From Nitrosopumilaceae archaeon (lineage in GTDB: Archaea > Thermoproteota > Nitrososphaeria > Nitrososphaerales > Nitrosopumilaceae): a DNA stretch of 64,000 bases. Location: NCBI GenBank assembly GCA_965208905.1, contig OZ242365.1, forward strand, positions 992,001 to 1,056,000, read 5' to 3'. The notes beneath the pieces were generated by a model, which saw only the letters and a program-made list of their open reading frames with translations, was not told the DNA's origin and made no database searches. Below are positions 1,975-61,120 of the stretch, one piece after another. Both the position numbers and the translations under genes were made by a program. Position 1 is the stretch's first letter; each line of letters opens with the position of its first letter.

Positions 1975-3016
1975 CATGGTTACTGATAAGGATATTAATG
2001 CATGGATAGACGGTAATGCTTCAGCCCTTGTTTTGCGAGAATATCTCAAACCAGTGGAGGGGGATCAGACGCCATTTTTTCCTCCTACATTTGCAGGAAC
2101 AGGTCAGGACGGAAGCGATTATTGCATAGACACTATGCGTGACGGAACTATGGTATGTTTGGTTGACACAGTAGGATCTCAGGCAAATCGGATGGAACCC
2201 GTATTTACACAGCAGCCATACGATGCACTCATTCCACAAATTACAATAAAGGCCCATAACGAAACAATAAATCTATGTGAGGTGGGGCACAGAGTTGCTG
2301 ATGCATTCTTGAAGAATTCTTCAATAAGCGATCTAATTGACAGTGCTTTAAATGCTCTGAAAAAAGAAAAGGATGCAACTAAATTGGCCAAGGTGGCACC
2401 CACTTCATTGGTCTTTGGAGTATGGGATTCTCGGAATACTCAGGTGAAAATGCCAAGAATTATCTCATCAGTGATAAGAGCTTATGACGTTGATGTTCTA
2501 AGTAGATCAGCGCAATACTTCCCTCCTGTAAATTATAGAGAAGAAAATATACTTGGCGAGAGCAAGGATAAGAAAGAAACCAATGCGCGTTCTGAACTTG
2601 GCTACAACGAGATCCCATCAACAAACACACACGGTGGAATAATTTCACATGGCCCCATACAAAGAGACACTGTTGTAAATTTTGCGGCGTTACGAAAGAT
2701 CAGGGCATCTGATGAAATCCAAACCAAGACATTGCAGGCATACATCCTAGGCCTCACACTTGTTGCCGCATTATCTATCCGGGAGTGGAATCTCAGGCAA
2801 GGTTGCTTGTTGACAATAGATCCGGACAGAGAAAAGCCCACTTGGAATTTAGTGTACCCTAACGGTGATCGAAATAAGGTCGATTTGAGCCAAAAAACCG
2901 TTCTCAAATATGCACAAGATGTTGCTAACAGATTCGGTATCGGTGAAAACAAAAAGGCCTCATTTGAGACAGAAAAGGCAAGTAAAGCTATAAAGGAAAA
3001 GATAAAAAAGAAATAA
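1967..3016 (+). CDS. csb1: Type I-G Cas7 backbone (Csb1)
   Basis: Motifs FFPPTF, DTVGSQANRME, HRVADA, PTSLVFGVWDS and LRQGCLL. Confidence 0.92.
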   Translation: MDSMVTDKDINAWIDGNASALVLREYLKPVEGDQTPFFPPTFAGTGQDGSDYCIDTMRDGTMVCLVDTVGSQANRMEPVFTQQPYDALIPQITIKAHNETINLCEVGHRVADAFLKNSSISDLIDSALNALKKEKDATKLAKVAPTSLVFGVWDSRNTQVKMPRIISSVIRAYDVDVLSRSAQYFPPVNYREENILGESKDKKETNARSELGYNEIPSTNTHGGIISHGPIQRDTVVNFAALRKIRASDEIQTKTLQAYILGLTLVAALSIREWNLRQGCLLTIDPDREKPTWNLVYPNGDRNKVDLSQKTVLKYAQDVANRFGIGENKKASFETEKASKAIKEKIKKK

Positions 3017-3025
3017 TAACTGCAA

Positions 3026-5086
3026 ATGTTGCGACAAGACACATTCAAACATCAGAACAAGTCGCCACATCTGGTTTTACGGGTTCGTTTTTTATTAAAC
3101 AGATATCATGGGAGTGAATATCCTCCATCCCCACGCAGGCTATTCTTAGCATTTGTATCTGCACTATACCAAAGTACATACCTGCGCATAAACGAAGACG
3201 CTGGAGAAGAAGCACTACATTTTCTAGAAAAACTACAACCGCCAACAATTCATGCGCCGTATCACCGCGGTTGTAAATACACCATATTTGTACCAAATAA
3301 CGACATGGACGTCATAAGTAAAAATTATGCTAGGGGGAAAGGATCGAATTATGATCCGAAGAAACTTACTTCGGGCAAAAAAATGAATCCGCACATAGTT
3401 GACATGATACAGTATTCTTGGAAGATTGGAAATGATAGCAGGAGTGAAAAATACGTACGTGTGTTGTCTCAACTGGCGCAGGAGATACCAGTGTTAGGCC
3501 TAGGCATAGATCCAGTATCTGTACACGGTGATATTGTAGATGGCACACCCTATCTGCAAAATGTAGAACAATATGTGGCAGATGAAAATACGGGTGAAAT
3601 GAGAATACAAGTTCCACAGCCCGGGCTTTTAGAAGATGCCAAGAGACATCACCATGAGTTTTTGAACAGAATTGATGGAGATCTGTTTCGTAAACCAGCA
3701 CCCATAACGAAATATCGTGAACAGAGATACAGTAAGCACAAGCAGCTTACAAAGATAATCGTTTTTAAGGTAACAAACAGTGATGCCAAGCTACGCCTCA
3801 TACCAAACAATAACCTGCCCACCCTTATCAAAAAATTCAGAGATAAAATGGGCTTAAAAGACAGTCAATCGATTAAAACTGTCGCGCTTCCAAGCATAGG
3901 GAGCAAGTACGCAGATGCAAGAGTACGCAGAATTGCAATCATTATGCCCCCCAATAATACTGGAGCTGGTGATGACTTGCATCGTAGACTTCGTATACAA
4001 AAACTTCATGTCGGTGGGGAGAATTACGATATAGAACCAATTCAAGACACGGATGGCGTTTATAGATTTTATGACCGGCCATCTAAATTATGGCGTACTG
4101 TTACGCCAGTAGATTTGAAACTCCCAAAACATTTCACGCGGCAAGATGTCACGCAAAATATCTTAGATCTCCTGCGTGTTGAAAACATTAGTGAACATGT
4201 GACCTTTATAAATTTCAGAAAAGAGCCGTATTGGAACGGACTTGCAAAGTCGTACAGTGACACTTCACTACATGTTGAGTTGGAATTTAAGATGCGTGTC
4301 AAAGGACCTTTTCTCATAGGGCAAAACCAGCATTTAGGGAACGGATTGTTTGCGCCATCAAATATGCCGAAGGTGGCATATTTTACGATCCTTGGAGAAA
4401 AACCCCGAATAGAAAAGACCATGCACGTAGCTACCCTGATGCGCAAATCAGTCATGTCCAGGATTGGAAAGGCGTTTGGCGATGAAGCAATTCCGTCATA
4501 CATATCCGGTCATGATGGCCATGGCAGAGCCTTGCGTGACAATCATAAACAGGCGTTTTGGCTACCAGTAGACACTGATCATGACGGGTTTATTGACAAC
4601 ATAGCCGTATTTGTGAAAGATGGGTTTGATAAAAGCATACAAAATTCGTTCTACGGAATAAGAGAGTTGAACAACGGTAATGACTTAAAACTTGATGTGT
4701 CTTTTAGAGGGTTTTACAGCAGAGAAGATATTGAAAAGAAGTGTGATTTGTTCAGTAAACAAAATAGCTGGAGATCAGGTACTCCGTATTTTATGCCATG
4801 GCACGAAAAGAAAAAATTTGGAAGAAATGAACAGATTGAGAAAGAGTGCAAGATGCGCGGTTTTGATTATGTTGGTGCTGGAGATTACATCATTAATCTT
4901 AACAAAAAACCAATTCAAATCAATAGGTTTTATAGCAGACATAACAAATTAAAGCCCATTAACCATCTTGGAAGCGCGTTAAAGATACACTTCAGCAATC
5001 CAACCAGAGGGCCCATATCCTTAGGGTTTGGTGCTCATTTTGGACTAGGAATGTTCATTCCCGACAATAACTTGGCCAGATCATAA
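3026..5086 (+). CDS. csb2: Type I-G Csb2 (Cas5-Cas6 fusion), long form with two Cas6-like modules
   Basis: N-terminal YHGSEYPPSPRRLF and FVPNND; two G-rich loops, GPFLIGQNQHLGNGLF and GPISLGFGAHFGLGMF. Confidence 0.88.
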   Translation: MLRQDTFKHQNKSPHLVLRVRFLLNRYHGSEYPPSPRRLFLAFVSALYQSTYLRINEDAGEEALHFLEKLQPPTIHAPYHRGCKYTIFVPNNDMDVISKNYARGKGSNYDPKKLTSGKKMNPHIVDMIQYSWKIGNDSRSEKYVRVLSQLAQEIPVLGLGIDPVSVHGDIVDGTPYLQNVEQYVADENTGEMRIQVPQPGLLEDAKRHHHEFLNRIDGDLFRKPAPITKYREQRYSKHKQLTKIIVFKVTNSDAKLRLIPNNNLPTLIKKFRDKMGLKDSQSIKTVALPSIGSKYADARVRRIAIIMPPNNTGAGDDLHRRLRIQKLHVGGENYDIEPIQDTDGVYRFYDRPSKLWRTVTPVDLKLPKHFTRQDVTQNILDLLRVENISEHVTFINFRKEPYWNGLAKSYSDTSLHVELEFKMRVKGPFLIGQNQHLGNGLFAPSNMPKVAYFTILGEKPRIEKTMHVATLMRKSVMSRIGKAFGDEAIPSYISGHDGHGRALRDNHKQAFWLPVDTDHDGFIDNIAVFVKDGFDKSIQNSFYGIRELNNGNDLKLDVSFRGFYSREDIEKKCDLFSKQNSWRSGTPYFMPWHEKKKFGRNEQIEKECKMRGFDYVGAGDYIINLNKKPIQINRFYSRHNKLKPINHLGSALKIHFSNPTRGPISLGFGAHFGLGMFIPDNNLARS

Positions 5087-6410: not shown

Positions 6411-7540
6411 GCCCTAAAACACTGGCAGGCGCCATCATACCATTCATACTGATTACCATACTTGTCATATACATAACAGGCCCCGGCTCAGACTATATCA
6501 TAATAGGTACACCACTACCTGAAGTGACACTAGAACGTATAGATTTTGTAGAGAATGAAATACAAGTTACCATACGAAATACAGGCCCAATACCCGTACA
6601 GGTAGTCCAAGCAGACGTAAATGACAGAATACAACCATCTGCTATAGAACCTGATGGAAGTTTAGAACGGTTCGAGACAGCATTGGTTCGCATACCATTC
6701 TTCTGGAATGAAGCCGAACCATACAATCTAGGCATAACCATACATGATGGTACGCGCTTTGAGAGGGAAGTAGCTGCTGCCTCGCCAGCCGTCACACCCG
6801 ACATTCAGACAACGACAAAATTTGCACTGGCAGGCGTATACATAGGTGTAATACCTGTATTCATAGGACTATTGTGGCTGCCCTTCATACGAAAATTAGA
6901 CTCTAAAAAATTGGGATTTTTTCTGGCCATCACAGTGGGCCTCTTGATATTTTTGGGAATTGATGCCATACAAGAGGCCCTTGAGGTATCAAAAGAATCT
7001 CTGGCAGGCTCCATCAACGGACCATTACTGATACTGGTTGCAGCATCGGGCGCATTTCTTGTATTGCAGTATATATCCGGACGATTCTCATCACATCGCA
7101 CAAAGATAACGGCAGCCATTCTAGTCTCCATCGGTATAGGTTTACACAACTTTGGTGAAGGGTTGGCGTTGGGGGCCGCGCTAAATTTAGGCTCGGTCGC
7201 ATTCTCTGCATCTTTGATGGTCGGCTTTGCCATACACAACACCACCGAAGGAGTGGCCATAGCCTCACCACTATCCAGACAAAAGAACATACTGCCAAAA
7301 TTAATCATATTAGGCATGGTGGCAGGCGCTCCAGCCATACTTGGCACATGGGCCGGCGGCTTTGCATACTCGCCCATTTTTATAGTAGCATTTTTGGCGG
7401 CGGGGGCTGGCGCAATATTTCAGGTTGCAATCGCAATATCTCAATGGATGTTAAAAGATAACACATATCACTCATATCAGATATGTGGAGGCATATTCTT
7501 GGGTATGATAATCATGTATGCAACTGGTATACTGGCATAG
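6407..7540 (+). CDS. ZIP-family divalent metal transporter
   Basis: GIGLHNFGEGLA and HNTTEG signature helices; multiple TM segments. Confidence 0.88.
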   Translation: MSPKTLAGAIIPFILITILVIYITGPGSDYIIIGTPLPEVTLERIDFVENEIQVTIRNTGPIPVQVVQADVNDRIQPSAIEPDGSLERFETALVRIPFFWNEAEPYNLGITIHDGTRFEREVAAASPAVTPDIQTTTKFALAGVYIGVIPVFIGLLWLPFIRKLDSKKLGFFLAITVGLLIFLGIDAIQEALEVSKESLAGSINGPLLILVAASGAFLVLQYISGRFSSHRTKITAAILVSIGIGLHNFGEGLALGAALNLGSVAFSASLMVGFAIHNTTEGVAIASPLSRQKNILPKLIILGMVAGAPAILGTWAGGFAYSPIFIVAFLAAGAGAIFQVAIAISQWMLKDNTYHSYQICGGIFLGMIIMYATGILA

Positions 7541-8124
7541 GTTCCTCCCGCAAGGACGGGTGTTGGTTGATGTGTGTTGGATAATGTTAAATACGTAATT
7601 AAACCGTACTGTATAGTGGCATCAGTAAAAAATAGCAGGGCAGTAACACGTCCATACGCAAAAAATTTGGGCATGCAACACGTGTTTGAGCATGGCAGAA
7701 GGATGGGAAGTTTGGACGCAGCTTACGTCGCAGATTACATTCTGCCATGATGCGAAAGGCATCGGATTTAATTTATGAAAAGTCCCAATTTTTGGGAGTG
7801 GAGGCACTACATATGCGTCCACACAACACATCCAAGTTGTGTGCTGCATGCAGAACCATATTAACTGGAACTTATCATAAAAAAGACTGCACCCACTGCC
7901 GTACAGTTGGCGTAGATCGTGACGTCAACGCAGTGGAGAACATACGGCGAACAAGCGCCGTATCCCGATATGGTTCGTAAGGTTTCGGCCAGTCTGGGCG
8001 AAGTCCGTCGTGGTGTGGATGTAATACTCGATCCCACACCACTCATACAGGGTTGCTGGAGCAACTGGGCCGACAGACTATCCCGCGTGGTGATGTGACA
8101 TCACCCGACTTTGCGGGAGGAACC
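7540..8124 (+). mobile_element. Non-autonomous IS6-like TIR element carrying a deleted tnpB
   Basis: Perfect 14-bp TIR GGTTCCTCCCGCAA (7540-7553 / 8111-8124); 8-bp TSD CTGGCATA (7532-7539 / 8125-8132). Confidence 0.9.
7690..7980 (+). pseudogene. tnpB: TnpB C-terminal remnant (Zn ribbon + RuvC-III)
   Basis: KFGRSLRRRLHSAMMRKASDLIYEKSQFLGV...HNTSKLCAAC...CTHC...DRDVNAVENI; N-terminus absent. Confidence 0.8.
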
Positions 8125-21636: not shown

Positions 21637-23098
21637 GGAGCTTATGCGATCAAACCAAAGTACTTTACTTTAAATATTCGTAATTGCCCATATAGGTATG
21701 TCCACAATAACACGCACAATACATGTGGCGCACAACAACGGGCAACTCCTGGGAGGTCTTCTGCACTACATACTCGCCGCGTCCAACGGTACCGCCAAGG
21801 CACTCCGTAGGGGCGTGCGGGGCAAGGAACTGAGGCGCAGGGCGGTACACCACACACGTGTGTATCAAACACGCTTTGCCGACTACATTGTATTGGATGT
21901 ATTTGGAAGTCACAAGGCATGGCGTACAAAGCAATTGACGGATAAACATGCCCGCGCGCCGCACTTTCGTAATCCGGTGGCGCAGACCGACATATTTGAG
22001 TTGGCATTTGATGATACATCAAAACGGTGGAACGGCACGCCGTCAATCCATGTAGCAGTATATGGAACGGGTCGGCAGAATAGGTCGTGGATGGTATTTC
22101 CGGTACCGCCATATGTCGTAAATGAGCTTGGCAGGCCAAACAGGACACCCAAAACCGTATCCATAAACAGGGATGAGATATTCATCACGTATCGGGAAAA
22201 TGTGCAGGATAGTAAAGCCGTAATGTGGGCAGGTGTGGATATGAATGCAAAGAACAACGCGTATTCATTCACTGATGGTACGGTAACTATTGTGGGCAAC
22301 CGAAATGGGAGTGAGTACAACAGGGCGTGTAGCAGGATATTGAAGGTGAGGCGGCGGAACGATGACCGCATCATGACAAAGTATACGGGAAAGGCATGGA
22401 AAACATACGGGAACCGCATACGCAATGATGTACATGTGGAGGCCAAAAGGTTGGCCAATGCGCGGTGTGTCGTAGGGTTTGAGACGCTGAACATCCACAA
22501 TCTGTACAACAAAAATGGTAAAATGTCGCCATATGTCCGCGGCAAGACGAAAGCGACGCTGAATACCGGCCAGAGGCAGGCTGCCCTCAAGAACGCGGCA
22601 GAGTCCGCGGGGCTACCAAGTGTGGGCGTTGAGCCGCGCAACACGTCTGCCAAATGCCACAAGTGTGGCGGAAGACTGGCGTTTCACAGTAAACGGAGCG
22701 GCGAGGTGCCGCTGCGCAACATGCGCTGCGGGGGTGTGTGCAGGGCAATGCGGGAGAGGGATGCCAACGCCAGCACCAACATATTATTGCTTACAATACG
22801 GAAATTAATGGGTGATTCTGTCGTTTCGACTGGAACCATCACGACGTCCGAGCTGCTGCAACTACTCAAAGTGGTGGTTGCCAATCGCACAGTCCCGCAT
22901 CGTAAGAAATTAATCGACATCATGCGGCTCTTAGAGGGTCGTAGCGCAAACACCTTGTGGTGTTTGTCGGGGGCGCACAAACCAAAACACCGTAATTACG
23001 TCGACGGTGACTCCATGGGTGTATTTGGGGTGGGCGATGCCGGCCGGAACGGTCCGGGGCCGCCCAATGCTGCCAAGTTGTGATTATGCATAATCTCT
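21637..23098 (+). mobile_element. TIR-type tnpB element E2 (same family as E5; ends degenerate)
   Basis: Left end GGAGCTTATGCGATCAAACCA aligns with the E5 end AGAGTTTATGCGTAATCGAATCA; right end ATTATGCATAATCTCT; no clear TSD. Confidence 0.65.
21698..23083 (+). CDS. tnpB: TnpB-like RNA-guided nuclease
   Basis: RuvC-I GVDMN, RuvC-II GFETL, NTSAKCHKC..CGGVC and RuvC-III RERDANAS; full-length paralogue of 36511-37914. Confidence 0.85.
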   Translation: MSTITRTIHVAHNNGQLLGGLLHYILAASNGTAKALRRGVRGKELRRRAVHHTRVYQTRFADYIVLDVFGSHKAWRTKQLTDKHARAPHFRNPVAQTDIFELAFDDTSKRWNGTPSIHVAVYGTGRQNRSWMVFPVPPYVVNELGRPNRTPKTVSINRDEIFITYRENVQDSKAVMWAGVDMNAKNNAYSFTDGTVTIVGNRNGSEYNRACSRILKVRRRNDDRIMTKYTGKAWKTYGNRIRNDVHVEAKRLANARCVVGFETLNIHNLYNKNGKMSPYVRGKTKATLNTGQRQAALKNAAESAGLPSVGVEPRNTSAKCHKCGGRLAFHSKRSGEVPLRNMRCGGVCRAMRERDANASTNILLLTIRKLMGDSVVSTGTITTSELLQLLKVVVANRTVPHRKKLIDIMRLLEGRSANTLWCLSGAHKPKHRNYVDGDSMGVFGVGDAGRNGPGPPNAAKL

Positions 23099-25454: not shown

Positions 25455-26729
25455 GTGACTGCTAACGATCCATTTGAGAGTGCTACAAAGGAGCTCAATG
25501 ATGCTTGTGATATATTGGGAATTGATGACTCTGGCGTAAGAGAGTATTTGGCTACACCCAACAGGGTGATGCGAGTAAAGGTACCGGTTGTAATGGATGA
25601 TGGTAAACTGCGAGTATTTACTGGGTTTAGGAGTCAACACAACAATGACCGTGGACCATACAAAGGTGGTATTCGCTTTTTAGATCCCCAAGGCGGCATA
25701 CAGTACATAGAACGTGAAGTGATGGCGCTGTCTGCATGGATGACTTGGAAGACTGCTTTGGTTGACGTTCCTCTAGGTGGAGGCAAGGGAGCTGTCTATG
25801 TCAACCCAAAGACTGAAAATCTCAGTAGCGGGGAACTTGCGAGAATGACCCGTAGATTTGCATTTGAGATATCTGAGATATTGGGTCCGAACAAAGACAT
25901 TCCCGCACCTGATGTCTATACCACCGGAAATGAGATGGCTGAGATCATGGATGTGTATGGAAAGCTCAACAACAAGACACATCAACCCGGAGTGATAACT
26001 GGAAAACCGATAAACATGGGCGGCTCGCAGGCGCGCAACGTCGCCACTGGTCTGGGCACTGCGTACTGTGTACGTCGGGCAGCCAAAAAGACCGGCATGA
26101 GTCTAAAGGGATCCAGTGTGGTACTACAAGGCTTTGGAAACGCATCCACCTTTGCAGGCGAGTATCTTGAAGAGATGGGCTGCGTAGTGAAAGGTGCCTC
26201 AGACACAAAGGGCAGCATACTGATTGCCGATGGTGCAAAGATGTCTGACTTGGAAAGGCACAAAAATGAGACGGGTACTGTAGTTGGGTTCCCAAATAGT
26301 GAAAAAGTAGAGACTGCACAACTATTGACTGCTGACTGCGATGTCTTGATTCCCGGGGCCCTTGAAAACCAGATTACCACTGATATAGCTGAAGATATCA
26401 AATGCAAAATTATAGGCGAGGCTGCTAACGGCCCCACTCTACCTGATGCCGACCCAATATTGTTCGAGAAGGGCGTTCAGGTTATACCCGACATACTCGC
26501 AAATGCCGGTGGAGTCACAGTATCATACTATGAGTGGGTTCAAAACAACATGGGGTATTATTGGTCATTTGATGAGGTGGCCTCTAAGATGGAAGCACAC
26601 CTTATTCGTGGATTCGATGACTCATATGACATCTCTTTAGACAAGAAGGTAGACATGCGACGTGCTACAATGTCTGTCGCTGTCAAAAGAGTCTATGATG
26701 CCTTTATGACAAGAGGCATTTGGCCTTAG
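25455..26729 (+). CDS. gdhA: Glutamate dehydrogenase
   Basis: GPYKGGIRF, GGGKG, DIPAPD, GFGN and PDILANAGGV; GTG start chosen. Confidence 0.95.
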   Translation: MTANDPFESATKELNDACDILGIDDSGVREYLATPNRVMRVKVPVVMDDGKLRVFTGFRSQHNNDRGPYKGGIRFLDPQGGIQYIEREVMALSAWMTWKTALVDVPLGGGKGAVYVNPKTENLSSGELARMTRRFAFEISEILGPNKDIPAPDVYTTGNEMAEIMDVYGKLNNKTHQPGVITGKPINMGGSQARNVATGLGTAYCVRRAAKKTGMSLKGSSVVLQGFGNASTFAGEYLEEMGCVVKGASDTKGSILIADGAKMSDLERHKNETGTVVGFPNSEKVETAQLLTADCDVLIPGALENQITTDIAEDIKCKIIGEAANGPTLPDADPILFEKGVQVIPDILANAGGVTVSYYEWVQNNMGYYWSFDEVASKMEAHLIRGFDDSYDISLDKKVDMRRATMSVAVKRVYDAFMTRGIWP

Positions 26730-26801
26730 ATGCATATGATCATCTGACGTAAACTACATTAGTACAATATATGGTATATTGGGAGTTGTTTATGATGCAA
26801 C

Positions 26802-28516
26802 GGGTGTGTCCCACAGGTAAATATCCAAAAACAGTGAATGGTGTATGCCAATAACGGGAATCAAATATTAAATAGTAAAACATAGTATAGTACTCTATAA
26901 AAAGACGATGTGGTGACACCGTAGCAGTATCAATGCCACACGGCAAGGTGTACAATCCTGCAAAATTCCGTGAACTAACAGGGTCTCGCAGACCACCCAA
27001 ATACGACCCAGATGATATACTGGCATCCGCTTTACAATATGCAGTACACAAGACCGGCCTGGGGTATCATCTGTGGTCTGAGTTCATCAGGGATTTTCCA
27101 AAAGTGCGGGAAGCGTATAGTGGTGGAGAATTAAAAGAGTATGATGCCGGGGTTAAGAAGATATACAGATTGCTCAAGCACCGTGATAATAAATACATGG
27201 CGCAGTTCGCGTTAACTATGAAAGATGAGTGTGAGGCTAAAGTGCGTGCATACTGTATAAGACGTGCGCAAGACCCCAACGCGCGGCGGCCAAAATGCAC
27301 CAACCCAATACTGCGGCAGAATGCTGGGTCTTGTAGGATATATGGTCAAGGTTTTCGATGTAGGTTATCTGACGCACCGAATAAACCACTACATTCATCA
27401 CCATACGTGGTACTGCGATTTCCAATAATCCCACATAAACATACCATGGAGGTACAACTCACGCCCTACATGGTGGAAAAACTAGCTACTGCCGTAAGTG
27501 TGGGGGCCGTTACCGTGACAGATAAGACCATATCTATAGCATATGAGCCGCAACCCATCACACCAGTACAACCCAAAGGTATCACAGGTATGGATGTCAA
27601 CAAAGTACAGCATGTTACGGCTGACACTAACGGGAGTGTAGAGCGTGTTCCAAATATGGCGCTTGAAGCCGCTCAGACACGACGGCAGAAACTCGCGAAT
27701 TTAGGAGTAACTGGCGGCAAACCGAAGAGTAAACAATCCCAAAAACCAAAGAAGCGTACTCTGCCAAAGCACGTCAAACACGTAGGCCGTAGGCCGAAGA
27801 ATAAAAAGCGTCATGATGAACGTGTGAGTCGTTGTGAACGCGCCCACATAAACACCAGATACAACAATCAAAAGAAGGACTGGTTGTTCAAATTAATGCA
27901 TGGGTTGGCTTCCCTGGGCTTTGTGTTGGCGTTGGAGGAGCCAACCATCGACAGGATGATGAAAAAGAGTAACAAGAATATGTCAAACGAGACGCGCGAC
28001 TTGTTGAAGATGGGGCTGAGTCAGGGTATAATATGGGCGGTGGCTAAAAGCGTATACGGAAAGCATGGTCTTCCCGTGATTGGTGTTGTTGCCAAAGGTA
28101 CTAGTTCTACATGTCCCACATGTAATGGAAAGTTATGGGAGCCAGAGTACGGCATGAAAATATGGAAAAAGTGGAGGCGTATTAAGGGGTGTGGGGTTTG
28201 TTTATATCATATCGACAGGGATGATGTCGCAGCCATCAATATTGTACGGCGCGGCATCCTCAAGTATTGTAAACCGGCAGCCGATTCTAATCGGTGGGTG
28301 GCCGGGGATTGGGAGCAGTTGGTCCAACCATTATTGGACCATACGGTCTTGTGGTTTCCGCAGGACCGTGAAGGGCGGCATCCTAAAGGGGAGGTGATGA
28401 ACTCAATGAGTGATGATTTACCATCCCTGGACGACCACCTGGATGTATCCAATTGTGCTGCTGGTGTAGCGCTGCCGGAGGAGACTCCGGTGGCTTTATA
28501 CTAGTGGGACACACCC
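26802..28516 (+). mobile_element. TIR element carrying only tnpB (element E3), 9-bp TSD
   Basis: Perfect 13-bp TIR GGGTGTGTCCCAC (26802-26814 / 28504-28516); exact TSD TGATGCAAC (26793-26801 / 28517-28525). Confidence 0.92.
26933..28504 (+). CDS. tnpB: Large (523 aa) TnpB-like nuclease
   Basis: RuvC-I GMDVN, RuvC-II LALEEP, TSSTCPTC..CGVC and RuvC-III DRDDVAA; basic insertion after RuvC-I. Confidence 0.85.
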   Translation: MPHGKVYNPAKFRELTGSRRPPKYDPDDILASALQYAVHKTGLGYHLWSEFIRDFPKVREAYSGGELKEYDAGVKKIYRLLKHRDNKYMAQFALTMKDECEAKVRAYCIRRAQDPNARRPKCTNPILRQNAGSCRIYGQGFRCRLSDAPNKPLHSSPYVVLRFPIIPHKHTMEVQLTPYMVEKLATAVSVGAVTVTDKTISIAYEPQPITPVQPKGITGMDVNKVQHVTADTNGSVERVPNMALEAAQTRRQKLANLGVTGGKPKSKQSQKPKKRTLPKHVKHVGRRPKNKKRHDERVSRCERAHINTRYNNQKKDWLFKLMHGLASLGFVLALEEPTIDRMMKKSNKNMSNETRDLLKMGLSQGIIWAVAKSVYGKHGLPVIGVVAKGTSSTCPTCNGKLWEPEYGMKIWKKWRRIKGCGVCLYHIDRDDVAAINIVRRGILKYCKPAADSNRWVAGDWEQLVQPLLDHTVLWFPQDREGRHPKGEVMNSMSDDLPSLDDHLDVSNCAAGVALPEETPVALY

Positions 28517-28585
28517 TGATGCAACTCTGACTATTAAAGGCCCCCGCATTGGGTGTTTGTTATGATATGATATGATATGGTACAT

Positions 28586-29125
28586 CTAGGCGAGACCCTC
28601 ATCTTTGAGCTCTTTGGACTCGGCTAGAACTTGGTTGTATCTCTGCTCTTTGTATCTTTTTAGTGCTTCACGTATGTGACTAAACTCGTTTCCCAGAATC
28701 ATGGCTGCATATATACCTGCACTCTTTGCCTTGTTTACGCCCATCGTCCCCACCGGCGAACCTGACGGCATCTCAGATATGGATAACAAAGCATCTAGGC
28801 CACCAAAAGCTGAGAACCTGCCGCCAGGACCCTTGTCTGCATATACCAGTATGGGAACACCTATCACCGGTATTGTGGTGAACGATGATATCATACCTGG
28901 CAGATGCGCTGCCCCACCAGCCCCTGCTATTATTACACGAAGCCCCAACTCCTCTGCGTGTTTGGCGTACTCCTGTAGTCGAGTTGGTGTGCGGTGCGCC
29001 GAGACTATCTGGTCTTCATGTGGTATATCAAATGAGTCGAGCACTTCGGCAGCCTCTCGCATAATCCGACGATCCGATGAGGACCCCATTATGATTCCTA
29101 CCAATGCTGTGTTATTGTTAGCCAT
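28586..29125 (-). CDS. purE: N5-CAIR mutase
   Basis: IIMGSSSD, SAHRTP and AGAGGAAHLPG. Confidence 0.95.
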   Translation of the reverse strand: MANNNTALVGIIMGSSSDRRIMREAAEVLDSFDIPHEDQIVSAHRTPTRLQEYAKHAEELGLRVIIAGAGGAAHLPGMISSFTTIPVIGVPILVYADKGPGGRFSAFGGLDALLSISEMPSGSPVGTMGVNKAKSAGIYAAMILGNEFSHIREALKRYKEQRYNQVLAESKELKDEGLA

Positions 29126-29209
29126 TATACCGACATACAAACTGATACGTATTAACCATGCTGTCCAAAATCAGTATATATTTTTAGAGTTGAGTTTTTT
29201 TGTTGTACT

Positions 29210-30352
29210 ATGAGTAAGGTATTGGGAGTTATAGGCGGGGGTCAACTAGGCATGATGCTCACGCAGGCAAGCTCTCGCATGAGTGATATATCCAAAGTAA
29301 TAGTACTAGACCCCACAGAGGGTTGCCCTGCAGCGCAAGTTGGCGCAGAACAGATACAGGCTTCATTTGATGATGCTACCGCCATAAAAAAACTAGCCTC
29401 ACTATCTGATGTCATAACATACGAGATAGAGTCTGGTGACAGCTACGTTTTAGAGTCTCTACAGGATGTTGCGGAGATAAACCCATCACCGCAGACCCTG
29501 CGCATAATACAAGACAAATATACACAGAAAGAGTTCTTGTCTCAAAATAACATACCTGCCCCGGACTTTGCCATGATATCATCATACGATGATATAGTAT
29601 CTGCTGCCTCAAAGTTTGGTTATCCTATACTCTTAAAGGCCCGAAGAGGCGGATATGATGGCCGGGGAAACTACAAAGTAGACTCTATACGCGACATACA
29701 AAGAGCTCTAGACTATTTTGGTGATACACCATTAATGGCAGAAGAGTTTGTGCCATATGTGATGGAGATATCCGTTATAATATCTCGAAACATATCTGGG
29801 CAAATTGAACACTATCCCGCCGTTGAGAACATTCATGAACACAACATACTGCGCCAGACCATATCGCCTGCCCGCATATCGCCAAGTCTGGCAGATAAAG
29901 CTGCTGATATAGCAATGAAGACTGTAAATGTACTTCAGGGAGCCGGAGTATTTGGGATAGAGATGTTCTTACTACCTGATGACACAATACTGATAAATGA
30001 GATCGCCCCCCGGGTCCACAACTCTGGCCATCACACAATGCATTCTGCAGCGACCTCCCAGTTTGAGCAGCATATACGTGCCGTATCGGGCATGGATTTG
30101 GGCAGTACCAAACTACATGGGCCTGCCGTTATGTATAACATACTGGGCCCACCAAACTTTACTGGCGAGTATATGTCCCCACAAATATCACATGATGCAT
30201 CGCATCTTGTCATGTATGGCAAAAAGATATCAAAACCCCTTCGAAAACTAGGCCACATCAACATACACGACAACAAAGAGTACACCGTATCACAACTGTT
30301 GGATATACTAGAGTCCATAAAACCACAGGCTGCTATCTCACCAATCTATTAA
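29210..30352 (+). CDS. purK: N5-CAIR synthetase
   Basis: GGGQLGMM, GGYDGRGN, NEIAPRVHNSGH and RKLGH. Confidence 0.95.
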   Translation: MSKVLGVIGGGQLGMMLTQASSRMSDISKVIVLDPTEGCPAAQVGAEQIQASFDDATAIKKLASLSDVITYEIESGDSYVLESLQDVAEINPSPQTLRIIQDKYTQKEFLSQNNIPAPDFAMISSYDDIVSAASKFGYPILLKARRGGYDGRGNYKVDSIRDIQRALDYFGDTPLMAEEFVPYVMEISVIISRNISGQIEHYPAVENIHEHNILRQTISPARISPSLADKAADIAMKTVNVLQGAGVFGIEMFLLPDDTILINEIAPRVHNSGHHTMHSAATSQFEQHIRAVSGMDLGSTKLHGPAVMYNILGPPNFTGEYMSPQISHDASHLVMYGKKISKPLRKLGHINIHDNKEYTVSQLLDILESIKPQAAISPIY

Positions 30353-32185: not shown

Positions 32186-32214
32186 CTACACATCACTGTA
32201 TGATGTTCTATATA

Positions 32215-33686
32215 GGGAATTATATACAAAAGTACACAGCCTCGGCTGTACACTCATGCCTTTTCTGACGGCTCTTCTGTATTGAATGGAGCATAGAAGG
32301 TGTTGGTTTGTAGCCCTCCTTATGCCCCGGCTGTCTTAGGACGACGTTCCCCGCCGCCCTATACAGGATATTCCAGGCGGCATTGACATCCGCGTGAAAC
32401 ACTCTGGTACAATTAGTGCAAATGAATTTGTCGCGTGTGACACGCGACTTAGCATCCACCGTACCACACACATGGCACGTCTGGCTCGTGTATTTGGCAG
32501 ATGCCCCCAACAGCGGTATGTTGTGTATCTCACACCACTGCGCAAGCTTGCGCAGGAACTCCCCGACACGGTTCTCCCGCATTGAACGGTTCATGGAGCG
32601 TTTGTAATTCCCACCATGCGTGGTCATGTCCTTTACGGAGAGCGACTCGACCACGACTGCGTCCACACCATTAGTTATCTGCGCAATCGTCTGATTTATG
32701 GTGTTCGCAGCTATGTTGTTGGCCTTCCTGTATAGCCGCTTTATTTGGTCATTCAATATATGCCACTTCCGGCCATGCCGTGTCTTGTGGTCACGCAAAC
32801 TCTTTAGCGCGTCAATCTCCCGCAGGATTGCTCTATGGCGGGTGTTGTGTATTGTAACGTTGCCATTTGTGTCGACAGTGACGGCGAGATGCTTGCCGCC
32901 CACATCAACACCCCGCATTACACCAGTATTGCGGTGCGACTCTACCGGTTCATGTATGGCAATATACAGCTCAAACATGTGGTCTGACGGCTTTGTATGC
33001 TTGTCCACCCGTTTGGTGACATCAACTATCTTGAATGAGCGCATGCCCCATGATGTATTGATGGGCTTGGCGGTCTCTACAATACCATATCCGGGGATAT
33101 GTATGGTGTGCCCACCTTTTCGTACAGGCGGTGTAACGGAACAAAGTATGATGCGGCCGTCTTTGCGGCGGTACGGCGCGTGGTCTGAGCTGTCATCTAT
33201 AACCCTTCTACATGCGACGGAGGCATCCTGTATGGCGCCCCTACCAAACGATGTGGGGCACTCGCGCAGCCATGTATGTTTGGCGCGCCACCCCGTAAGC
33301 TGTTTGTGCATGCCGTACTTTAATGCCCTCTTTGACGACCCAAAATCATATGTATGGTAGTCATAGTTCAGCGTACCGGACGTAACACCCTTCAACGTGT
33401 TCGGTAGTTTGAAGGGCTGTAGTATGTCCACTACCACCCTCTCCATGTATTCGCCGCCAAACAAATACTCTGATACGGCGCGGTTGTACACATATCTTGA
33501 CGCATGATTCGTGCGGTGCGCCCACTCTGCAAACAACACATCCATTCGTAGCGGTACCTTGACTATCCGTATCATAATGTATAATACGGTATGTTGGTAT
33601 TTAAGAGGAGTTGCTGTATGGACGCGTTCCGTGGTTCAGGTATTAACTCTCAGAATCGAGGTTGTGTACTTTTGTATATGATTCCC
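32215..33686 (-). mobile_element. IS1595-like TIR element carrying only tnpB (element E4)
   Basis: 30-bp TIR GGGAAT(T/C)ATATACAAAAGTACACA(G/A)CCTCG, 28/30 identical (32215-32244 / 33657-33686); no TSD retained. Confidence 0.9.
32220..33575 (-). CDS. tnpB: TnpB/Cas12f-like RNA-guided nuclease
   Basis: SRYVYNRA, RuvC-I GVDVG, RuvC-II VVESL, TSQTCHVC..CTNC and RuvC-III HADVNAA. Confidence 0.92.
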   Translation of the reverse strand: MIRIVKVPLRMDVLFAEWAHRTNHASRYVYNRAVSEYLFGGEYMERVVVDILQPFKLPNTLKGVTSGTLNYDYHTYDFGSSKRALKYGMHKQLTGWRAKHTWLRECPTSFGRGAIQDASVACRRVIDDSSDHAPYRRKDGRIILCSVTPPVRKGGHTIHIPGYGIVETAKPINTSWGMRSFKIVDVTKRVDKHTKPSDHMFELYIAIHEPVESHRNTGVMRGVDVGGKHLAVTVDTNGNVTIHNTRHRAILREIDALKSLRDHKTRHGRKWHILNDQIKRLYRKANNIAANTINQTIAQITNGVDAVVVESLSVKDMTTHGGNYKRSMNRSMRENRVGEFLRKLAQWCEIHNIPLLGASAKYTSQTCHVCGTVDAKSRVTRDKFICTNCTRVFHADVNAAWNILYRAAGNVVLRQPGHKEGYKPTPSMLHSIQKSRQKRHECTAEAVYFCI

Positions 33687-33782
33687 TTAATTTACGGTAA
33701 GCGCCGATAATTACACAGCTCAATAACCATACAAGCCTATTTTGATTGACCCGGATGTAAAGTTCGGAGGTCGGGGTGGCAG

Positions 33783-36416: not shown

Positions 36417-36505
36417 ACTCAGAGACTGTATGTCACATTATGTATGATATCTGATGTAAGCCACACTGCCATCACACATACTCTCTGTCATACTATGAAT
36501 GCGTT

Positions 36506-37980
36506 AGAGTTTATGCGTAATTGCACAACTTGGCAGCATTGGGTGGTCCCGGCCCGTTCTGGCCGGCACCGCCCACCCCGGTACAGCCCATCGGCTCACC
36601 GCCGACGGAATTCTGGCGTTCCGGTTTGTGCGCCCCCGACAAATGCCATTCGGCATCTGCACTACGACTCTCTAACAGCCGCATGATGTTAAGAAGTGTA
36701 ATTCTCCGACCATGCGTGAGTGTGCGGTCGGCGGCCGCCTCTTTCAGCAGCCGTGTTATGTGGTATAGTGTGGTGTTTGATGATATAGTGGTATTACACA
36801 TCAGAGCCAAAATGGTACGAAATAGTATGTTGGCACCCGCGTTGGCATCCCGTTCCCTAATTGTACGACATGTATAGCACCACATGTCGCGGGTCGGTAT
36901 TTTACCGGTATTGGTCCCAATATGTTTTAGATCTCCGCCACATTTGAGACATTTCGCGGACGTATTTCGTGGTTCGATGCTTATATGCGGCAGACCCTCG
37001 GACTCGGCTGCGTTTTTGAGTGCATTCTGTCTCTGGCCCGTATTCAGTGTGGATTTTGTTTTGCCACGGATAAATGGTGATATTGTATAGTTTTTGGTGT
37101 ACAGTCGGTGTATGCTCAATGTTTCATGCCCTATGCCGTATCCGGCATTGGCCATCTTCCGGGCTTCCACACATACATCATTATGGATGCGGTTTTTGTA
37201 CACACTCCATGCCCTGTTTGTGTATTTTGTCATAATGCGGTTATCGTTACGCCGCTTCACCTTTAGCATCTTGCTGTGTGCCTTGTTGTATTCACGTGCA
37301 TTGCGGTTGGGCCGCATAACTACAGTGCCATCAGCGAATGCATAGGTGTTGTTTTTGGCATTCATATCCACACCGGCCCAGGATATGGGCTCGCTATACG
37401 GAACGTCTTCCTTGTATGTAATGTATATCTCATTATATCTTAGTAGTACAGTCTTTGGTATTCTACCAGGCTTGGTAAGCTCATCCACTACATATGGTGG
37501 TACAGGGAAGGCCAGCCATGGCTTATCTGGACGGCCCCTACCGTATATTGGTACATGTATTGATGGTGTGCCATTCCATCGTTTTGATGTATCATCAAAT
37601 GCCAGCTCGAACCTGTCAGTCTGCGCCACAGGGTTGTGGTAGTGTGGGGCACGTACATGCACATTAACCAACTGATTCGTACGCCATGCCTTGTAGTTTC
37701 CATGCACGCTTTGTATTATATAGTCGGCGAAGCGTGAGTGGTATACGCCAGTACGGTGCACCGCCATACGATATAGTTTCTTGCCGCGCACACCCTTGCG
37801 TAATACCTTCGCAGCATGGTTGGACGCAGCCCCCACATAATGTAACAAACCACCCAAAAGATGTCCACTGTCATGTGTTACATGGATGGTGCGCATTATT
37901 GTGCCCATACACATGATGTATAGCTTATGGTATTTATATATACGGTACTGTACATCATGATTCGATTACGCATAAACTCT
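36506..37980 (-). mobile_element. TIR element carrying only tnpB (element E5), 3-bp TSD
   Basis: Perfect 16-bp TIR AGAGTTTATGCGTAAT (36506-36521 / 37965-37980); TSD GTT (36503-36505 / 37981-37983). Confidence 0.9.
36511..37914 (-). CDS. tnpB: TnpB-like RNA-guided nuclease
   Basis: GVDMN, IGHETL, NTSAKCLKC..CYTC and RERDANAG. Confidence 0.87.
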   Translation of the reverse strand: MCMGTIMRTIHVTHDSGHLLGGLLHYVGAASNHAAKVLRKGVRGKKLYRMAVHRTGVYHSRFADYIIQSVHGNYKAWRTNQLVNVHVRAPHYHNPVAQTDRFELAFDDTSKRWNGTPSIHVPIYGRGRPDKPWLAFPVPPYVVDELTKPGRIPKTVLLRYNEIYITYKEDVPYSEPISWAGVDMNAKNNTYAFADGTVVMRPNRNAREYNKAHSKMLKVKRRNDNRIMTKYTNRAWSVYKNRIHNDVCVEARKMANAGYGIGHETLSIHRLYTKNYTISPFIRGKTKSTLNTGQRQNALKNAAESEGLPHISIEPRNTSAKCLKCGGDLKHIGTNTGKIPTRDMWCYTCRTIRERDANAGANILFRTILALMCNTTISSNTTLYHITRLLKEAAADRTLTHGRRITLLNIMRLLESRSADAEWHLSGAHKPERQNSVGGEPMGCTGVGGAGQNGPGPPNAAKLCNYA

Positions 37981-38265
37981 GTTGTATATGACATTCTGGT
38001 ATGTGCTCCTCGCAGTCTGCATGTTGCATGCGGCAAGTCTAGTGGCTGCTTGACGGCTCAGCTATACGCGAACCATTGGGAGTCGTGTATCCTACCTGTA
38101 TGTCGCACCCACATGTGAGCCGTCCTACTGGTATATCGTATAGTATGACATCCATCTCTTTAAAATGACTGTTCGTACAGTGGGCTGCACGCGTGTTTAT
38201 TCAGGTATGTAATTCCCCATTATACCCATAAAAACCATATATGTAGGCATTATAATGTCATGTAG

Positions 38266-51555: not shown

Positions 51556-51629
51556 TGTTGTAGTATATGAAAATTATGGGAATTATATAGTTTGTAACAA
51601 ACGAATATAAGGCAGAATCCCCCCCCCGT

Positions 51630-52994
51630 ATGGCAGGCATTAAGAATAGAACCATATTCACAGGGGATAATCTAGAGATATTACGTGGCTTTCCAGACGA
51701 ATTTGTAGATTTGATATATCTAGACCCACCGTTTAACTCCAAACATAACTATGCCGCTCCAATAGGTTCAAAGGCAGCCGGGGCCGCATTCAAGGATACG
51801 TGGAATCTAAGTGATATTGACTTGGCATGGTGGGGCGAGATCCAATGTACGAGTCCAACTGTATACAAGGTGCTTGAGATGGCCCGTGCAACGGCGGGAA
51901 AGTCAGCAATGTCGTATTTGATTTACATGGCAATACGCATATTGGAGTTACATAGAGTTTGCAAATCAACAGGTTCATGTTATATTCACTGTGATTCGAC
52001 TATGTCCCACTATTTGAAGATGGTACTTGATGCAATATTTGGCATTAAGAATTTTCGCAATGAGATACTCTGGAAACGGTTTAGTGCGCATAATGATGGC
52101 CGAAGGTATGGCAAGGTAACTGATACTCTATTATTCTATGCTAAGACATGTACACATACATGGAATAGAGTTTATACTCCATACTCAGATGAATATATAC
52201 AATCAAGTTACCGCGATGAGGATGAACTGGGCCGTTACACGCATAGAGCCTTAACAGCAGAAGGGCTATCGGGGGGAGGGTATGAGTATGAATTTCATGG
52301 ACATCATCGTATTTGGAAGAGATCTTTGGAATCCATGCAGCGATTAGAAAGTGAAGGAAAAATACACTTTCCGAAAAAGAGTGGAGGTGTGCCTAGATAC
52401 AAGATATATCTTAAAGATGCTCTAGGCATACCTTTACAAAATATTTGGACAGACATACCCATTGTAGGCGGTAATGAAAAACTACATTACCCAACTCAAA
52501 AACCCCTCGCCCTACTGGAACGTATTATCAAAGCATCAAGTAATGAGGGGGATATTGTATTGGATCCATTTTGTGGATGTGCTACAGCTTTGAGCGCGGC
52601 AGAGAAGTTAGATCGGCAATGGATAGGTATAGACATATCTACAAAAGCGTATGATTTGCTCAAAGACCGTCTTGTCAGAGAGGCGGGCCTTGACAAGTAC
52701 ACTAAAGGGGCGGGTATACTAATACACCGCACCGACATTCCAATACGCAAGGGCAGGCGGTCTAAAGACATCAAAGACACTCTATACGGTAAACAGAGGG
52801 GGCGGTGCAATCTCTGCCCTCACTGGTTTGAGTACAGACAAATGGACGTGGATCATATCATACCCAAGTCCAAGGGTGGGGCAAATGATGATGCAAACTT
52901 ACAGTTGTTATGCAACAACTGTAACAAGATCAAGGGTAATCGCACTATGGCAGAGGCAAGGGCAATACTCAAAGAAAGAGGGCTTATCGAGTAA
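51630..52994 (+). CDS. N6/N4 DNA methyltransferase fused to C-terminal HNH endonuclease
   Basis: IYLDPPF, YPTQKP and VLDPFCGCAT; CNLC..DHIIPKSKGG..NLQLLCNNCN. Confidence 0.9.
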   Translation: MAGIKNRTIFTGDNLEILRGFPDEFVDLIYLDPPFNSKHNYAAPIGSKAAGAAFKDTWNLSDIDLAWWGEIQCTSPTVYKVLEMARATAGKSAMSYLIYMAIRILELHRVCKSTGSCYIHCDSTMSHYLKMVLDAIFGIKNFRNEILWKRFSAHNDGRRYGKVTDTLLFYAKTCTHTWNRVYTPYSDEYIQSSYRDEDELGRYTHRALTAEGLSGGGYEYEFHGHHRIWKRSLESMQRLESEGKIHFPKKSGGVPRYKIYLKDALGIPLQNIWTDIPIVGGNEKLHYPTQKPLALLERIIKASSNEGDIVLDPFCGCATALSAAEKLDRQWIGIDISTKAYDLLKDRLVREAGLDKYTKGAGILIHRTDIPIRKGRRSKDIKDTLYGKQRGRCNLCPHWFEYRQMDVDHIIPKSKGGANDDANLQLLCNNCNKIKGNRTMAEARAILKERGLIE

Positions 52995-53251
52995 TGGGGT
53001 TAAGGGAGTTGGGGGTATTAATTGGCTTAATTGTTGTAATGGTCATAGTGGCTATTTTAACTGCACTATGTGAATTTATGTCATCACAATCAAATTTAGA
53101 AGGTCTGTGGGCCGAGACTCATGAACGAAATTTATCAATTATCTGTTTTGTTGCTAACATGTTTAAGAATGACACAGCGGTGGAACAATCGCAAAATATT
53201 ATCACCATACAAAGGTATGATAACACACAAACCCACAATCAGTCTTGCTAA
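52994..53251 (+). CDS. Small hypothetical membrane protein (passenger)
   Basis: Start coupled to the MTase stop; N-terminal TM; overlaps an opposite-strand ORF. Confidence 0.35.
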   Translation: MGLRELGVLIGLIVVMVIVAILTALCEFMSSQSNLEGLWAETHERNLSIICFVANMFKNDTAVEQSQNIITIQRYDNTQTHNQSC

Positions 53252-53414
53252 ATCATCTTGCCACCACTCTATTTGTGACGGCCCGCCAATCTGAACTCCC
53301 AAGATAGGAATTGTTAGGAATAAACCTAAGGCCAATCCAAAAAATATTACTGGTTTGCGTATGGATGTTGATCCCATAATTAAGTTAAAGTTAAAGATCA
53401 AATAAGTGTTACTG

Positions 53415-54359
53415 TTATGCAATCAACGCTTCATAAGTAAGCCTCTTTCCCATCATACCTCTAACTAGACTTACCATCATGTCTATTGTGTCTAGATTCC
53501 GAATGTTTAGCCGTCCTGCAAACTCGTTAACATACCTGTGTAGATGCTTTGCCGATATGTGATGAAACGTGCCGTAATAGCCACGCTTTAACAAAGCCCA
53601 GAAAGACTCTATGCCGTTGGTATGCGCCATGCCGTTTACATATTGACTAACGGAATGGTTAACCGTTTCATGATTAGGTAGGTTTTGGTATGCCCTACTC
53701 TCGTCCGTATAATGGGTTGCTCCCGTCTTGGTGTTTTGTTCAATAAATTTACCAAGACGGGCAGCGGTTGTATCCGGTACGGGTTCGGCTCTGATGTTAC
53801 CTGTCTTTCTATCTTTGATTCCAACCACGGCGGTTTTGTTGGCGCCGCCTTGACTGTGTGGGGTTTTCTTGTCTGCATGCTTGTTGGATTCCTTGCCTCC
53901 GAAATATGCCTCGTCAATTTCGACTGGGCCTTCCATCTTGTCTGTACCTGCCAGTGTATGCCATGATTCACGTAACCTTTGTACCATGAACCATGCCGAC
54001 TTTTGGGTTATGCCCAAATCCCTATGCAGTTTCATTGAACTAATACCCTTAACGTTGGTCATGAACTGATATGTTGCAATGGCCCATTGTTGATATGTCA
54101 TATGGGATTGTTCCATGATTGTTCCTACCTTGACACTAAACCGCTTGTGGCAATTCCCCACACCTGCACAGTAATACGGCATCTTTTTGTACTTTGTTTT
54201 TTTGATGTTGGTATTACCACAAAACGGGCAGCATGGCTTATCGTCCCAAATTGTACGTTCAAACCACTTTTCGGCGGCATCATCATCAGGAAATATCTTG
54301 AATAGTTTTGCAAGCGTTATTCCTTCACGGTGACTTTTACCGGGTGCTTGTTGGCTCAT
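53415..54359 (-). CDS. IS1595-family DDE transposase, intact
   Basis: CPFC Zn ribbon, VEIDEAY, YTDE, TVNHS and HTNGIESFW..LKR. Confidence 0.93.
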   Translation of the reverse strand: MSQQAPGKSHREGITLAKLFKIFPDDDAAEKWFERTIWDDKPCCPFCGNTNIKKTKYKKMPYYCAGVGNCHKRFSVKVGTIMEQSHMTYQQWAIATYQFMTNVKGISSMKLHRDLGITQKSAWFMVQRLRESWHTLAGTDKMEGPVEIDEAYFGGKESNKHADKKTPHSQGGANKTAVVGIKDRKTGNIRAEPVPDTTAARLGKFIEQNTKTGATHYTDESRAYQNLPNHETVNHSVSQYVNGMAHTNGIESFWALLKRGYYGTFHHISAKHLHRYVNEFAGRLNIRNLDTIDMMVSLVRGMMGKRLTYEALIA

Positions 54360-54427
54360 AGTATACCTTAGAAACATGGATTATATAAAGATTGTTACAA
54401 AGTATATAATTCCCAAAATTATGTCCG

Positions 54428-60985: not shown

Positions 60986-61120
60986 GGTTCTTCCCGCAAG
61001 GATGGGTGATTGATCTAAATAATCCAGATCTGGACCGCAATTCGACCCAGACCGGGCATGCGCGGGCCGCCAGAGGAGACTCCGAGGGCCTTATGCTAGT
61101 GGGCACCCCCGACTGTTTTT
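60986..61120 (+). mobile_element. IS6-like element left-end remnant
   Basis: GGTTCTTCCCGCAAGG followed by ~85 bp homologous to 55821-55905. Confidence 0.7.

Follow-up and report, generated by a model that had tools for sequence, protein, structure and literature searches.

A 64,000-nt window from the genome of a Nitrosopumilaceae archaeon (G000:C1:992001-1056000, where G000 is the whole genome, a single 2,214,775-bp contig, 99.6% complete) contains a 1715-bp element at 26802-28516 whose one gene encodes a predicted TnpB nuclease. The element is very probably a non-autonomous IS5-type transposon, carrying TnpB as cargo and moved by a transposase supplied in trans. The comparisons that follow draw mainly on two further genomes of the same genus, G005 and G006. 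Positions are those of the window unless given as genome coordinates.

The element is bounded by perfect 13-bp terminal inverted repeats (TIRs), GGGTGTGTCCCAC at 26802-26814 on the plus strand and its exact reverse complement at 28504-28516 on the minus strand, and these in turn by an exact 9-bp target-site duplication of TGATGCAAC (26793-26801 and 28517-28525; no strand assigned). Between the repeats lie an untranslated left part (26815-26932, plus strand) and a single 523-aa open reading frame (ORF), tnpB (26933-28504, plus strand), which fills the element and whose TAG stop codon (28502-28504) overlaps the right TIR by one base. The repeats, the duplication, the single ORF, and the overlapping stop codon are as described in the initial annotation, made from the window sequence. 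From its sequence, an A/T-rich stretch at 26896-26903, which resembles a TATA box and precedes the ATG by ~37 nt, is a possible archaeal promoter. Within the window, the two arms of the element are the only exact copies of the 13-mer. In the whole 2.21-Mb genome the 13-mer has 276 forward and 220 reverse matches with up to three mismatches, and only two pairs of arms 60-8000 bp apart have 9-bp flanks agreeing to within two mismatches. Both are copies of this element, so the arrangement is not a chance one.

That the element was inserted at this site was to be judged, according to the initial annotation, by whether an orthologous empty site reads as a single TGATGCAAC. Such a site was found in G005, using window positions 25800-29500 as query against 31 related genomes: identity is 93% over bases 1-1002 of the query and 94% over bases 2718-3364, and the two alignments have nine subject bases in common. 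It reads ...GTTGTTTA TGATGCAAC TCTGAT... (with the longer left flank GGGAGTTGTTTA), so that the 9-mer is there once, without any footprint. This shows the duplication to be genuine and to have arisen when the element inserted.

Copies of the element were surveyed within one genus. The window element (copy A) has an 87% identical counterpart in G000 (copy B; genome 877423-879145, minus strand), with a perfect 9-bp duplication of its own (GTGTTGCAG) and a reading frame broken by one TAG and a frame break. In all, 17 TnpB-bearing copies were compared, from G000, G001, G005, G006, G007, and G009: the 9-bp duplication is perfect in ten, has one mismatch in three, is ambiguous in two (offset by one base in L042; interrupted and with two mismatches in L064), and is absent from one (L044), while the left end of the last (L043) has been lost. 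Their ends read GG(G/C)TGTGTCCC(A/G)C throughout. Two of the three G005 copies (L049, L050) are each interrupted by a ~1.62-kb insertion, at different sites in tnpB, and nonetheless retain perfect 9-bp duplications at their own ends. The protein (P0001) occurs at E <= 1e-40 in 7 of 401 genomes of the family, all seven in one genus (six of nine, plus G000), and in none of the 391 genomes outside it. Named homologues in the protein search are labeled “Nitrosopumilaceae archaeon” or “Thaumarchaeota archaeon.” A scan of genome contigs gave a single locus, 73% identical, in a Nitrosopumilaceae metagenome-assembled genome; a scan of metagenome contigs with the family alignment gave 404 pattern matches, none of them confirmed.

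The window contains no partner transposase, as had been noted at the outset, and a search with the TIR through the whole of G000 did not reveal the hoped-for autonomous element with these ends; one does exist in G006, of the IS5 family. The end pattern GGNTGTGTCCCRCAG has 18 matches in G006, six in G005, and three in G000; two genomes from a different genus have a single match apiece, and the reversed control has none in all 121 genomes. G006 has three IS5-family elements of 1242-1254 bp with the ends GGCTGTGTCCCACAGACATA...GTGGGACACAGCC, two of them with perfect 9-bp duplications (TTAGTTCAC and GGACTGGCC), and two 315-bp miniature elements without an ORF but with the same ends, both with perfect 9-bp duplications. 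The left TIR of the window element has the form shared by these IS5-family and miniature elements, GG(G/C)TGTGTCCC(A/G)CAG, and within G006 the insertion sequences (ISs; L060, L066) and the TnpB elements do not differ over the first ~20 nt of their left ends. The ends held in common uphold the original proposal of a true inverted-repeat element that makes a target duplication and depends on a transposase encoded elsewhere. Together with the 9-bp duplications, they indicate a non-autonomous derivative of the IS5 family rather than of IS256 or Mutator.

The 1.25-kb elements of G006 encode a 327-aa transposase, intact in L066 (positions 2597-3580 of that locus), with matches to DDE_Tnp_1 (6.7e-10) and DUF772. 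Matches to the NCBIfam IS5 models are below their cut-offs; the best of them, transpos_IS5_2 (59.6 bits against a cut-off of 140, with a frameshifted copy as query), does not assign an IS5 subgroup. The transposase carries YHQRSIIEAVFGAIKK, which has the Y(2)R(3)E(6)K signature, and haloarchaeal plasmids encode distant relatives of it that bear the annotation “IS5 family transposase.” The 9-bp duplication and GG(C) ends are reminiscent of the IS903 group, for which a 9-bp duplication is typical. Intact close copies of the transposase are found in G006, G015, and G126. Only residues 1-38/39 are left in G000 (74-76% identical; genome 1126391-1126507), where the next-best matches are IS5 genes 22% identical and with other ends; in G005 the only relatives are 30% identical and contain stop codons.

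By sequence and by structural model, the cargo protein is a TnpB, of the class of RNA-guided nucleases ancestral to Cas12, with its predicted catalytic residues intact. The Cas12f1-like TNB domain (PF07282) is matched at 34.9 bits against a cut-off of 26.3. The residues of the split RuvC domain (D221, E335, D428/D430) and those of a C4 zinc finger between RuvC-II and RuvC-III (C394, C397, C420, and C423) do not vary among the 24 homologues aligned, whose identity to the query is 50-86%. When solved structures were searched by sequence, the VED and DRDE motifs of the TnpB-like nuclease 9yyg aligned with E335 and the DRDD motif. In the AlphaFold2 model, residues ~30-260 and 296-440 are confidently predicted and an insert at 260-294 and the tail from residue 443 are disordered. 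A Foldseek search with this model matched 42 PDB chains at E <= 1e-3; every chain listed is a Cas12, TnpB, or Fanzor protein. The top matches include AsCas12f 8j3r (6e-10) and ISDra2 TnpB 8h1j (8e-8), and Fanzor2 9b0l (7e-8) and ISFba1 TnpB are matched as well. The comparison with TnpB and Cas12f suggested in the initial annotation thus bears out its identification of the protein, and the K/R-rich insert that it saw after RuvC-I is real (residues ~260-294), is kept in the family, and is predicted to be disordered. The N-terminal region, which it called atypical, is not clearly so: the model has a helical block resembling the recognition (REC) lobe and then beta-strands, an order also found in TnpB and Cas12f.

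The last ~230 nt of the element are predicted to form a covarying RNA structure that ends in the right TIR, much like an omegaRNA scaffold. The putative scaffold (28291-28516, plus strand) extends over the final ~70 codons of tnpB. For the terminal 247 nt the fold energy is -118 kcal/mol, compared with -84.8 +/- 4.8 for shuffled sequences (z = -6.95), and none of 200 shuffles folds as well. An alignment of seven copies from four genomes, over a region that is also coding sequence, yields a consensus of 83 pairs in eight helices with 95.7% of cells paired; since only three sub-clades are represented, the seven are not independent. Compensatory changes on both sides are seen at 14 pairs, compared with 0-2 when partners are slid by 1-3 columns, and none of 500 shuffles reaches the observed number. 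A terminal hairpin of 24 pairs takes in the stop codon and reaches 7 nt into the right repeat, whose remaining 6 nt are unpaired. Disorder is predicted for the part of the protein that this stretch encodes, its tail, which fits a constraint at the RNA level. The sole Rfam match, to TeloSII_ncR30 on the opposite strand and below threshold (27.2 bits against 86), was taken as chance. RNA libraries gave short contigs only: one of 165 nt on 27218-27375, and two from a diverged related copy. The one hint of transcription is a 247-nt contig in one RNA library, from a related copy, which covers 28290-28516 plus 14 nt beyond. Stretches without contigs are uninformative, and carry-over of DNA is possible, so the libraries are not counted as evidence of expression.

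The element is probably moved, and could maintain itself, as follows. Its only cargo is a TnpB nuclease, predicted to be RNA-guided and with intact catalytic residues, plus a putative RNA scaffold within the 3' end of the gene. An IS5-type DDE transposase acting in trans probably binds the 13-bp TIRs, its staggered cuts, 9 bp apart, giving rise to the 9-bp duplication. RNA transcribed through the right repeat and into the flank would carry as guide the duplicated 9 bp (28517-28525, the predicted first 9 nt judging by their position) followed by right flank, with 28526-28536 (plus strand) as the candidate for completing a guide of ~20 nt by analogy with TnpB omegaRNAs. This guide, together with a TTTR motif before the left duplication, would specify the unoccupied site; TnpB would cut an empty or cleanly restored site, and recombination would copy the element back. 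The logic would be that known for IS200/IS605 elements, here on a transposon that generates duplications.

How much of this still goes on in G000 is another matter. Because the genome keeps only a 39-aa remnant of the transposase, copy A is probably stranded there now. It might then be a relic altogether, with mobility and homing in the past and TnpB kept for some host function or for none, a reading that overlaps with a trans-mobilized IS5-type transposon and differs from it only on present activity. The loss of the transposase, the broken frame of copy B (one TAG and a frame break), and eight solo right-end fragments that show decay of the family would all fit; copy A, however, keeps an open frame, all the catalytic residues, and the RNA helices, and a cluster 99% identical to it is recorded on a 2.13-Mb contig. 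On balance a relic seems rather unlikely, though not far-fetched.

The motif in question is TTTA at 26789-26792 (plus strand), in the target DNA, where it adjoins the 5' side of the left duplication and is a candidate target-adjacent motif (TAM). Read in the sense of tnpB, the four bases at this position in the five insertions of the G000/G005 sub-clade are TTTA, TTTG, TTTA, TTTG, and TTTA: TTTR in every case. The genome frequency of TTTR is 0.011, and none of 20,000 random sets of five 24-mers matches the observed information content over four columns. TTTR is already present in the empty site of G005. Neither the duplications nor the bases after the right duplication show mirrored conservation in the five insertions, and the TnpB-less ISs and miniature elements of G006 that have the same ends lack the motif (aca, ggt, atc, tat, and ggc). 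In the copies from G007 and G009, the left duplication is preceded by GCAG and GTAG.

An RNA continuing past the right repeat would have the duplicated 9 bp as the beginning of its guide, and TTTR plus duplication plus right flank is then the unoccupied site. TTTR then sits where a TAM would be expected, and the predicted target of TnpB and its omegaRNA would begin TGATGCAACTCTGACT...; at the occupied left junction only nine matching bases follow the motif. That TTTR is in fact a TAM and that homing operates is possible, the probability falling a little short of even. Two weaker regularities were seen in the same five insertions: an RTGA-like pattern 8-11 nt after the right duplication (28533-28536 in the window and the four equivalent positions: ATTA, GTGA, ATGA, ATGA, and AATA), and an A at 9 nt before the left duplication in all five. 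With so few sequences these may be chance, or may reflect the end of the guide or a wider target preference.

TTTR could instead be a target preference of the DDE transposase, or simply the A/T-rich context of intergenic DNA, with TnpB and its RNA having no influence on where copies are found. There are only five insertions to go on, the G006/G001 sub-clade has no clear motif, and a broader target preference could lie behind the A at -9 and the RTGA-like pattern at +8 to +11. Set against this, the motif is one-sided, without a mirrored YAAA after the right duplication; the TnpB-less elements of G006 do without TTTR although their ends are the same; and two other TnpB families of G000 that share one type of end differ from each other at position -1 (A in eight of eight for a family of 487-aa proteins; G in four of six and A in one of six for one of 406 aa). 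Target preference or sequence context is a rather unlikely source of the motif.

Two other accounts concern the transposition itself. TnpB might be the transposase, its RuvC domain making the staggered cuts, and the element autonomous: it has a single ORF, G000 contains many solo-TnpB elements with inverted repeats and duplications, and no intact cognate transposase remains in that genome. The same ends and 9-bp duplication are nevertheless found on DDE elements without TnpB and on the 315-bp elements with no ORF at all, other TnpB families of G000 share their ends and 8-bp duplications with IS1595-family elements there, and no TnpB is known to catalyze strand transfer; this account is very improbable. 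Least credible of all is the IS256/Mutator-like transposase that the initial annotation proposed on the strength of the GG..TGT ends and the 9-bp duplication, since, for all that IS256 and Mutator elements make 8-9-bp duplications, Transposase_mut (PF00872) and MULE (PF10551) have no matches anywhere in G000 (the positive controls being found in 6 and 4 of 14 genomes), and elements with identical ends encode an IS5-family enzyme.

Several observations weigh against the proposal of a trans-mobilized, homing TnpB transposon in whole or in part. There is no intact cognate transposase in G000 or G005, so mobilization is unseen in this lineage; the evidence of shared ends is that of G006, and there the TnpB copies have a DNA identity of just ~64% with copy A. 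The protein is divergent, as first described: the NCBIfam model guided_TnpB (NF040570) matches only its C-terminal half, below cut-off (40.8 bits against 100; E = 1.6e-10), and the AlphaFold2 model is mediocre (predicted local distance difference test, 62.9; predicted template modeling score, 0.43). No omegaRNA family in Rfam was matched, and the covariation rests on seven sequences from three sub-clades, over coding sequence. The G006/G001 sub-clade shows no clear motif before the left duplication (CTGC, TGTG, TTGG, TTGG, and GTGC). Finally, excision by a cut-and-paste DDE transposase already leaves a break, so that the benefit of homing is debated (PMC13565253).

The arrangement as such has already been described, and the element is a very clean new case of it. 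Altae-Tran et al. (2023, PNAS; PMC10691335) distinguish six DDE-associated branches of TnpB, all with inverted terminal repeats, and take solo TnpBs whose ends are near-identical to those of transposase-bearing systems to be mobilized in trans. The window element resembles their DDE-associated systems in having TnpB between inverted repeats, with the 3' end of the gene less than 250 bp from the end of the transposon. The DDE partners of TnpB named in a 2026 review are ISL2, IS630, and IS1031, the association being called rare in prokaryotes and its benefit doubted (PMC13565253); here, by contrast, the partner is of the IS5 family, the duplication is of 9 bp, and the host range is one genus of Nitrosopumilaceae. 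A TAM-like motif outside a long variable duplication, or an association of DDE elements and TnpB in Nitrosopumilaceae, was not found in the literature, although the supplements of PMC10691335 may list the clade. The new point is the presence of TTTR directly 5' of the left duplication in all five insertions of the sub-clade; further TnpB families of G000 have motifs of their own there.

With the IS1341 group of the IS200/IS605 family the element has in common a single tnpB, whose 3' end coincides with a predicted omegaRNA-like structure, and a motif, before the left end, that would act as TAM; in ISDra2, TTGAT adjoins the 5' end in the TAM/target geometry of IS200/IS605 (PMC13565253). Elements of that family, however, have subterminal hairpins and a Y1 TnpA, with neither inverted repeats nor duplications (PMC13565253), in place of the 13-bp repeats and 9-bp duplication found here. 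The perfect repeats, the duplication, and the empty site place the element outside IS200/IS605, the genome not having been searched for a Y1 transposase. IS5-family elements and their miniature derivatives are similar in that their repeats begin with GG, that Y(2)R(3)E(6)K is found in their DDE_Tnp_1 transposase, and that non-autonomous derivatives are moved in trans; the difference is that a large cargo, TnpB and its RNA, replaces the transposase. Fanzor elements, reportedly described by Bao and Jurka in 2013 from eukaryotes and giant viruses, likewise have a TnpB-type nuclease inside DDE transposons with inverted repeats and duplications. In Fanzors, the TAM includes a short fixed 5' duplication, and the RNA scaffold contains the 3' one (PMC13565253). 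The window element differs in its archaeal host, in the length (9 bp) and variability of its duplication, in having the candidate TAM outside the duplication, and in that the duplication is itself the would-be start of the guide.

Taken with other elements of G000, these features allow a further reading, somewhat less likely than not: in this archaeal lineage, non-autonomous DDE transposons have more than once acquired TnpB with its guide RNA as their sole cargo, copies persist only directly 3' of a TAM, and the variable duplication, with the TAM outside it, serves as guide seed. The captured sets would then be those with IS5-type ends and 9-bp duplications, IS1595-type ends and 8-bp duplications, and a third type of end with 8-bp duplications. 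If this is so, homing by TnpB extends in prokaryotes to cut-and-paste transposons that generate duplications, by a solution different from that of Fanzors, and the multiplication of these elements, even though their transposase excises them, is explained. G000 is in any case a counter-example to the pairing of TnpB with DDE elements being “rare” in prokaryotes, as the review puts it (PMC13565253). Among its TnpB elements the one in the window is the clearest case: its empty site is known, a sister genome has a partner transposase, and its RNA structure covaries. Its one-sided motif offers a handle on whether the nuclease shapes where DDE-moved elements survive, and the element provides a compact TnpB of archaeal origin, for which the RNA scaffold is defined and a T-rich TAM predicted.

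Some 334 kb of G000, or 15% of the 2.2-Mb genome, consists of repeats no shorter than 300 bp and with 75% identity or higher, an unusually heavy load for this archaeal family. Most are IS630, rve-type, IS6-like, IS1595, and IS5 elements (the DDE families of the genome, several of them rve-type) and seven families of solo TnpB. The last are plentiful, with dozens of elements, most of them bounded by inverted repeats and duplications. Families of 451 and 445 aa have the ends GGGAATTATATAC and an 8-bp duplication, preceded in the 451-aa family by G at -1 in all 12 copies with a clean duplication. A 451-aa element of ~1.47 kb is present in the window (32190-33696; ORF 32220-33575, minus strand), with ~27-bp inverted repeats starting GGGAATTATATAC and without a clean duplication of its own; at least 12 further copies are found in the genome. 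The GGGAATTATATAC ends are common to these elements and to IS1595-family elements of G000. One of these, of 2837 bp, is at 51578-54414 (transposase ORF 53415-54377, minus strand), with inverted repeats starting GGGAATTATATA and an 8-bp duplication, AAAATTAT. Over its first 12 nt it is the same as the 451-aa and 445-aa TnpB elements, so it is likely, judging from the ends, to be the element that mobilizes them in trans; judging from literature listings, no paper deals with a functional link between TnpB and IS1595.

The 487-aa and 406-aa families (elements of 1.61 and 1.51 kb; genome 60267-61884, 28035-29550, and 12 more) have the ends GGTTCCTCCCGCAA and an 8-bp duplication; TA precedes it in all eight 487-aa insertions, and TT at -3/-2 in all six of the 406-aa family, with G at -1 in four of the six. 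A 585-bp derivative with GGTTCCTCCCGCAA ends is in the window at 7540-8124. These ends resemble those of the IS6 family, and IS6-like transposases are present in G000. Solo-TnpB elements of 467 aa (36504-37989; ORF 36511-37914, minus strand) and 461 aa (21698-23083, plus strand) are bounded by AGAGTTTATGCGTAAT as inverted repeats, with what looks like a 3-bp duplication: AAC, AAT, and ACT in three copies. A 435-aa family has hairpin-type ends without inverted repeats, and no duplication was seen.

The eight right-end-only remnants of the element family in G000 keep 34-218 nt of the 3' end of the gene plus the repeat. One, of 45 nt and 83% identical, is in the window on the plus strand (61066-61110; genome 1053066-1053110); the others are at genome 250376-250593, 285949-286122, 1802943-1803029, 1351318-1351400, 722319-722387, 638479-638543, and 461543-461575. 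They consist of the terminal hairpin and inverted repeat, with no left end nearby, and may be either remnants of deletion or stand-alone guide-RNA modules. Solitary left ends (GGATGTGTCCCACAG and variants) are found at genome position 1951078 in G000 and at 746768, 864460, 1216879, and 350715 in G005 (L055-L058). They have neither a duplication nor a clear right end and are followed by unrelated content (two small helix-turn-helix-like ORFs in G000); they may be derivatives carrying other cargo, or decayed copies.

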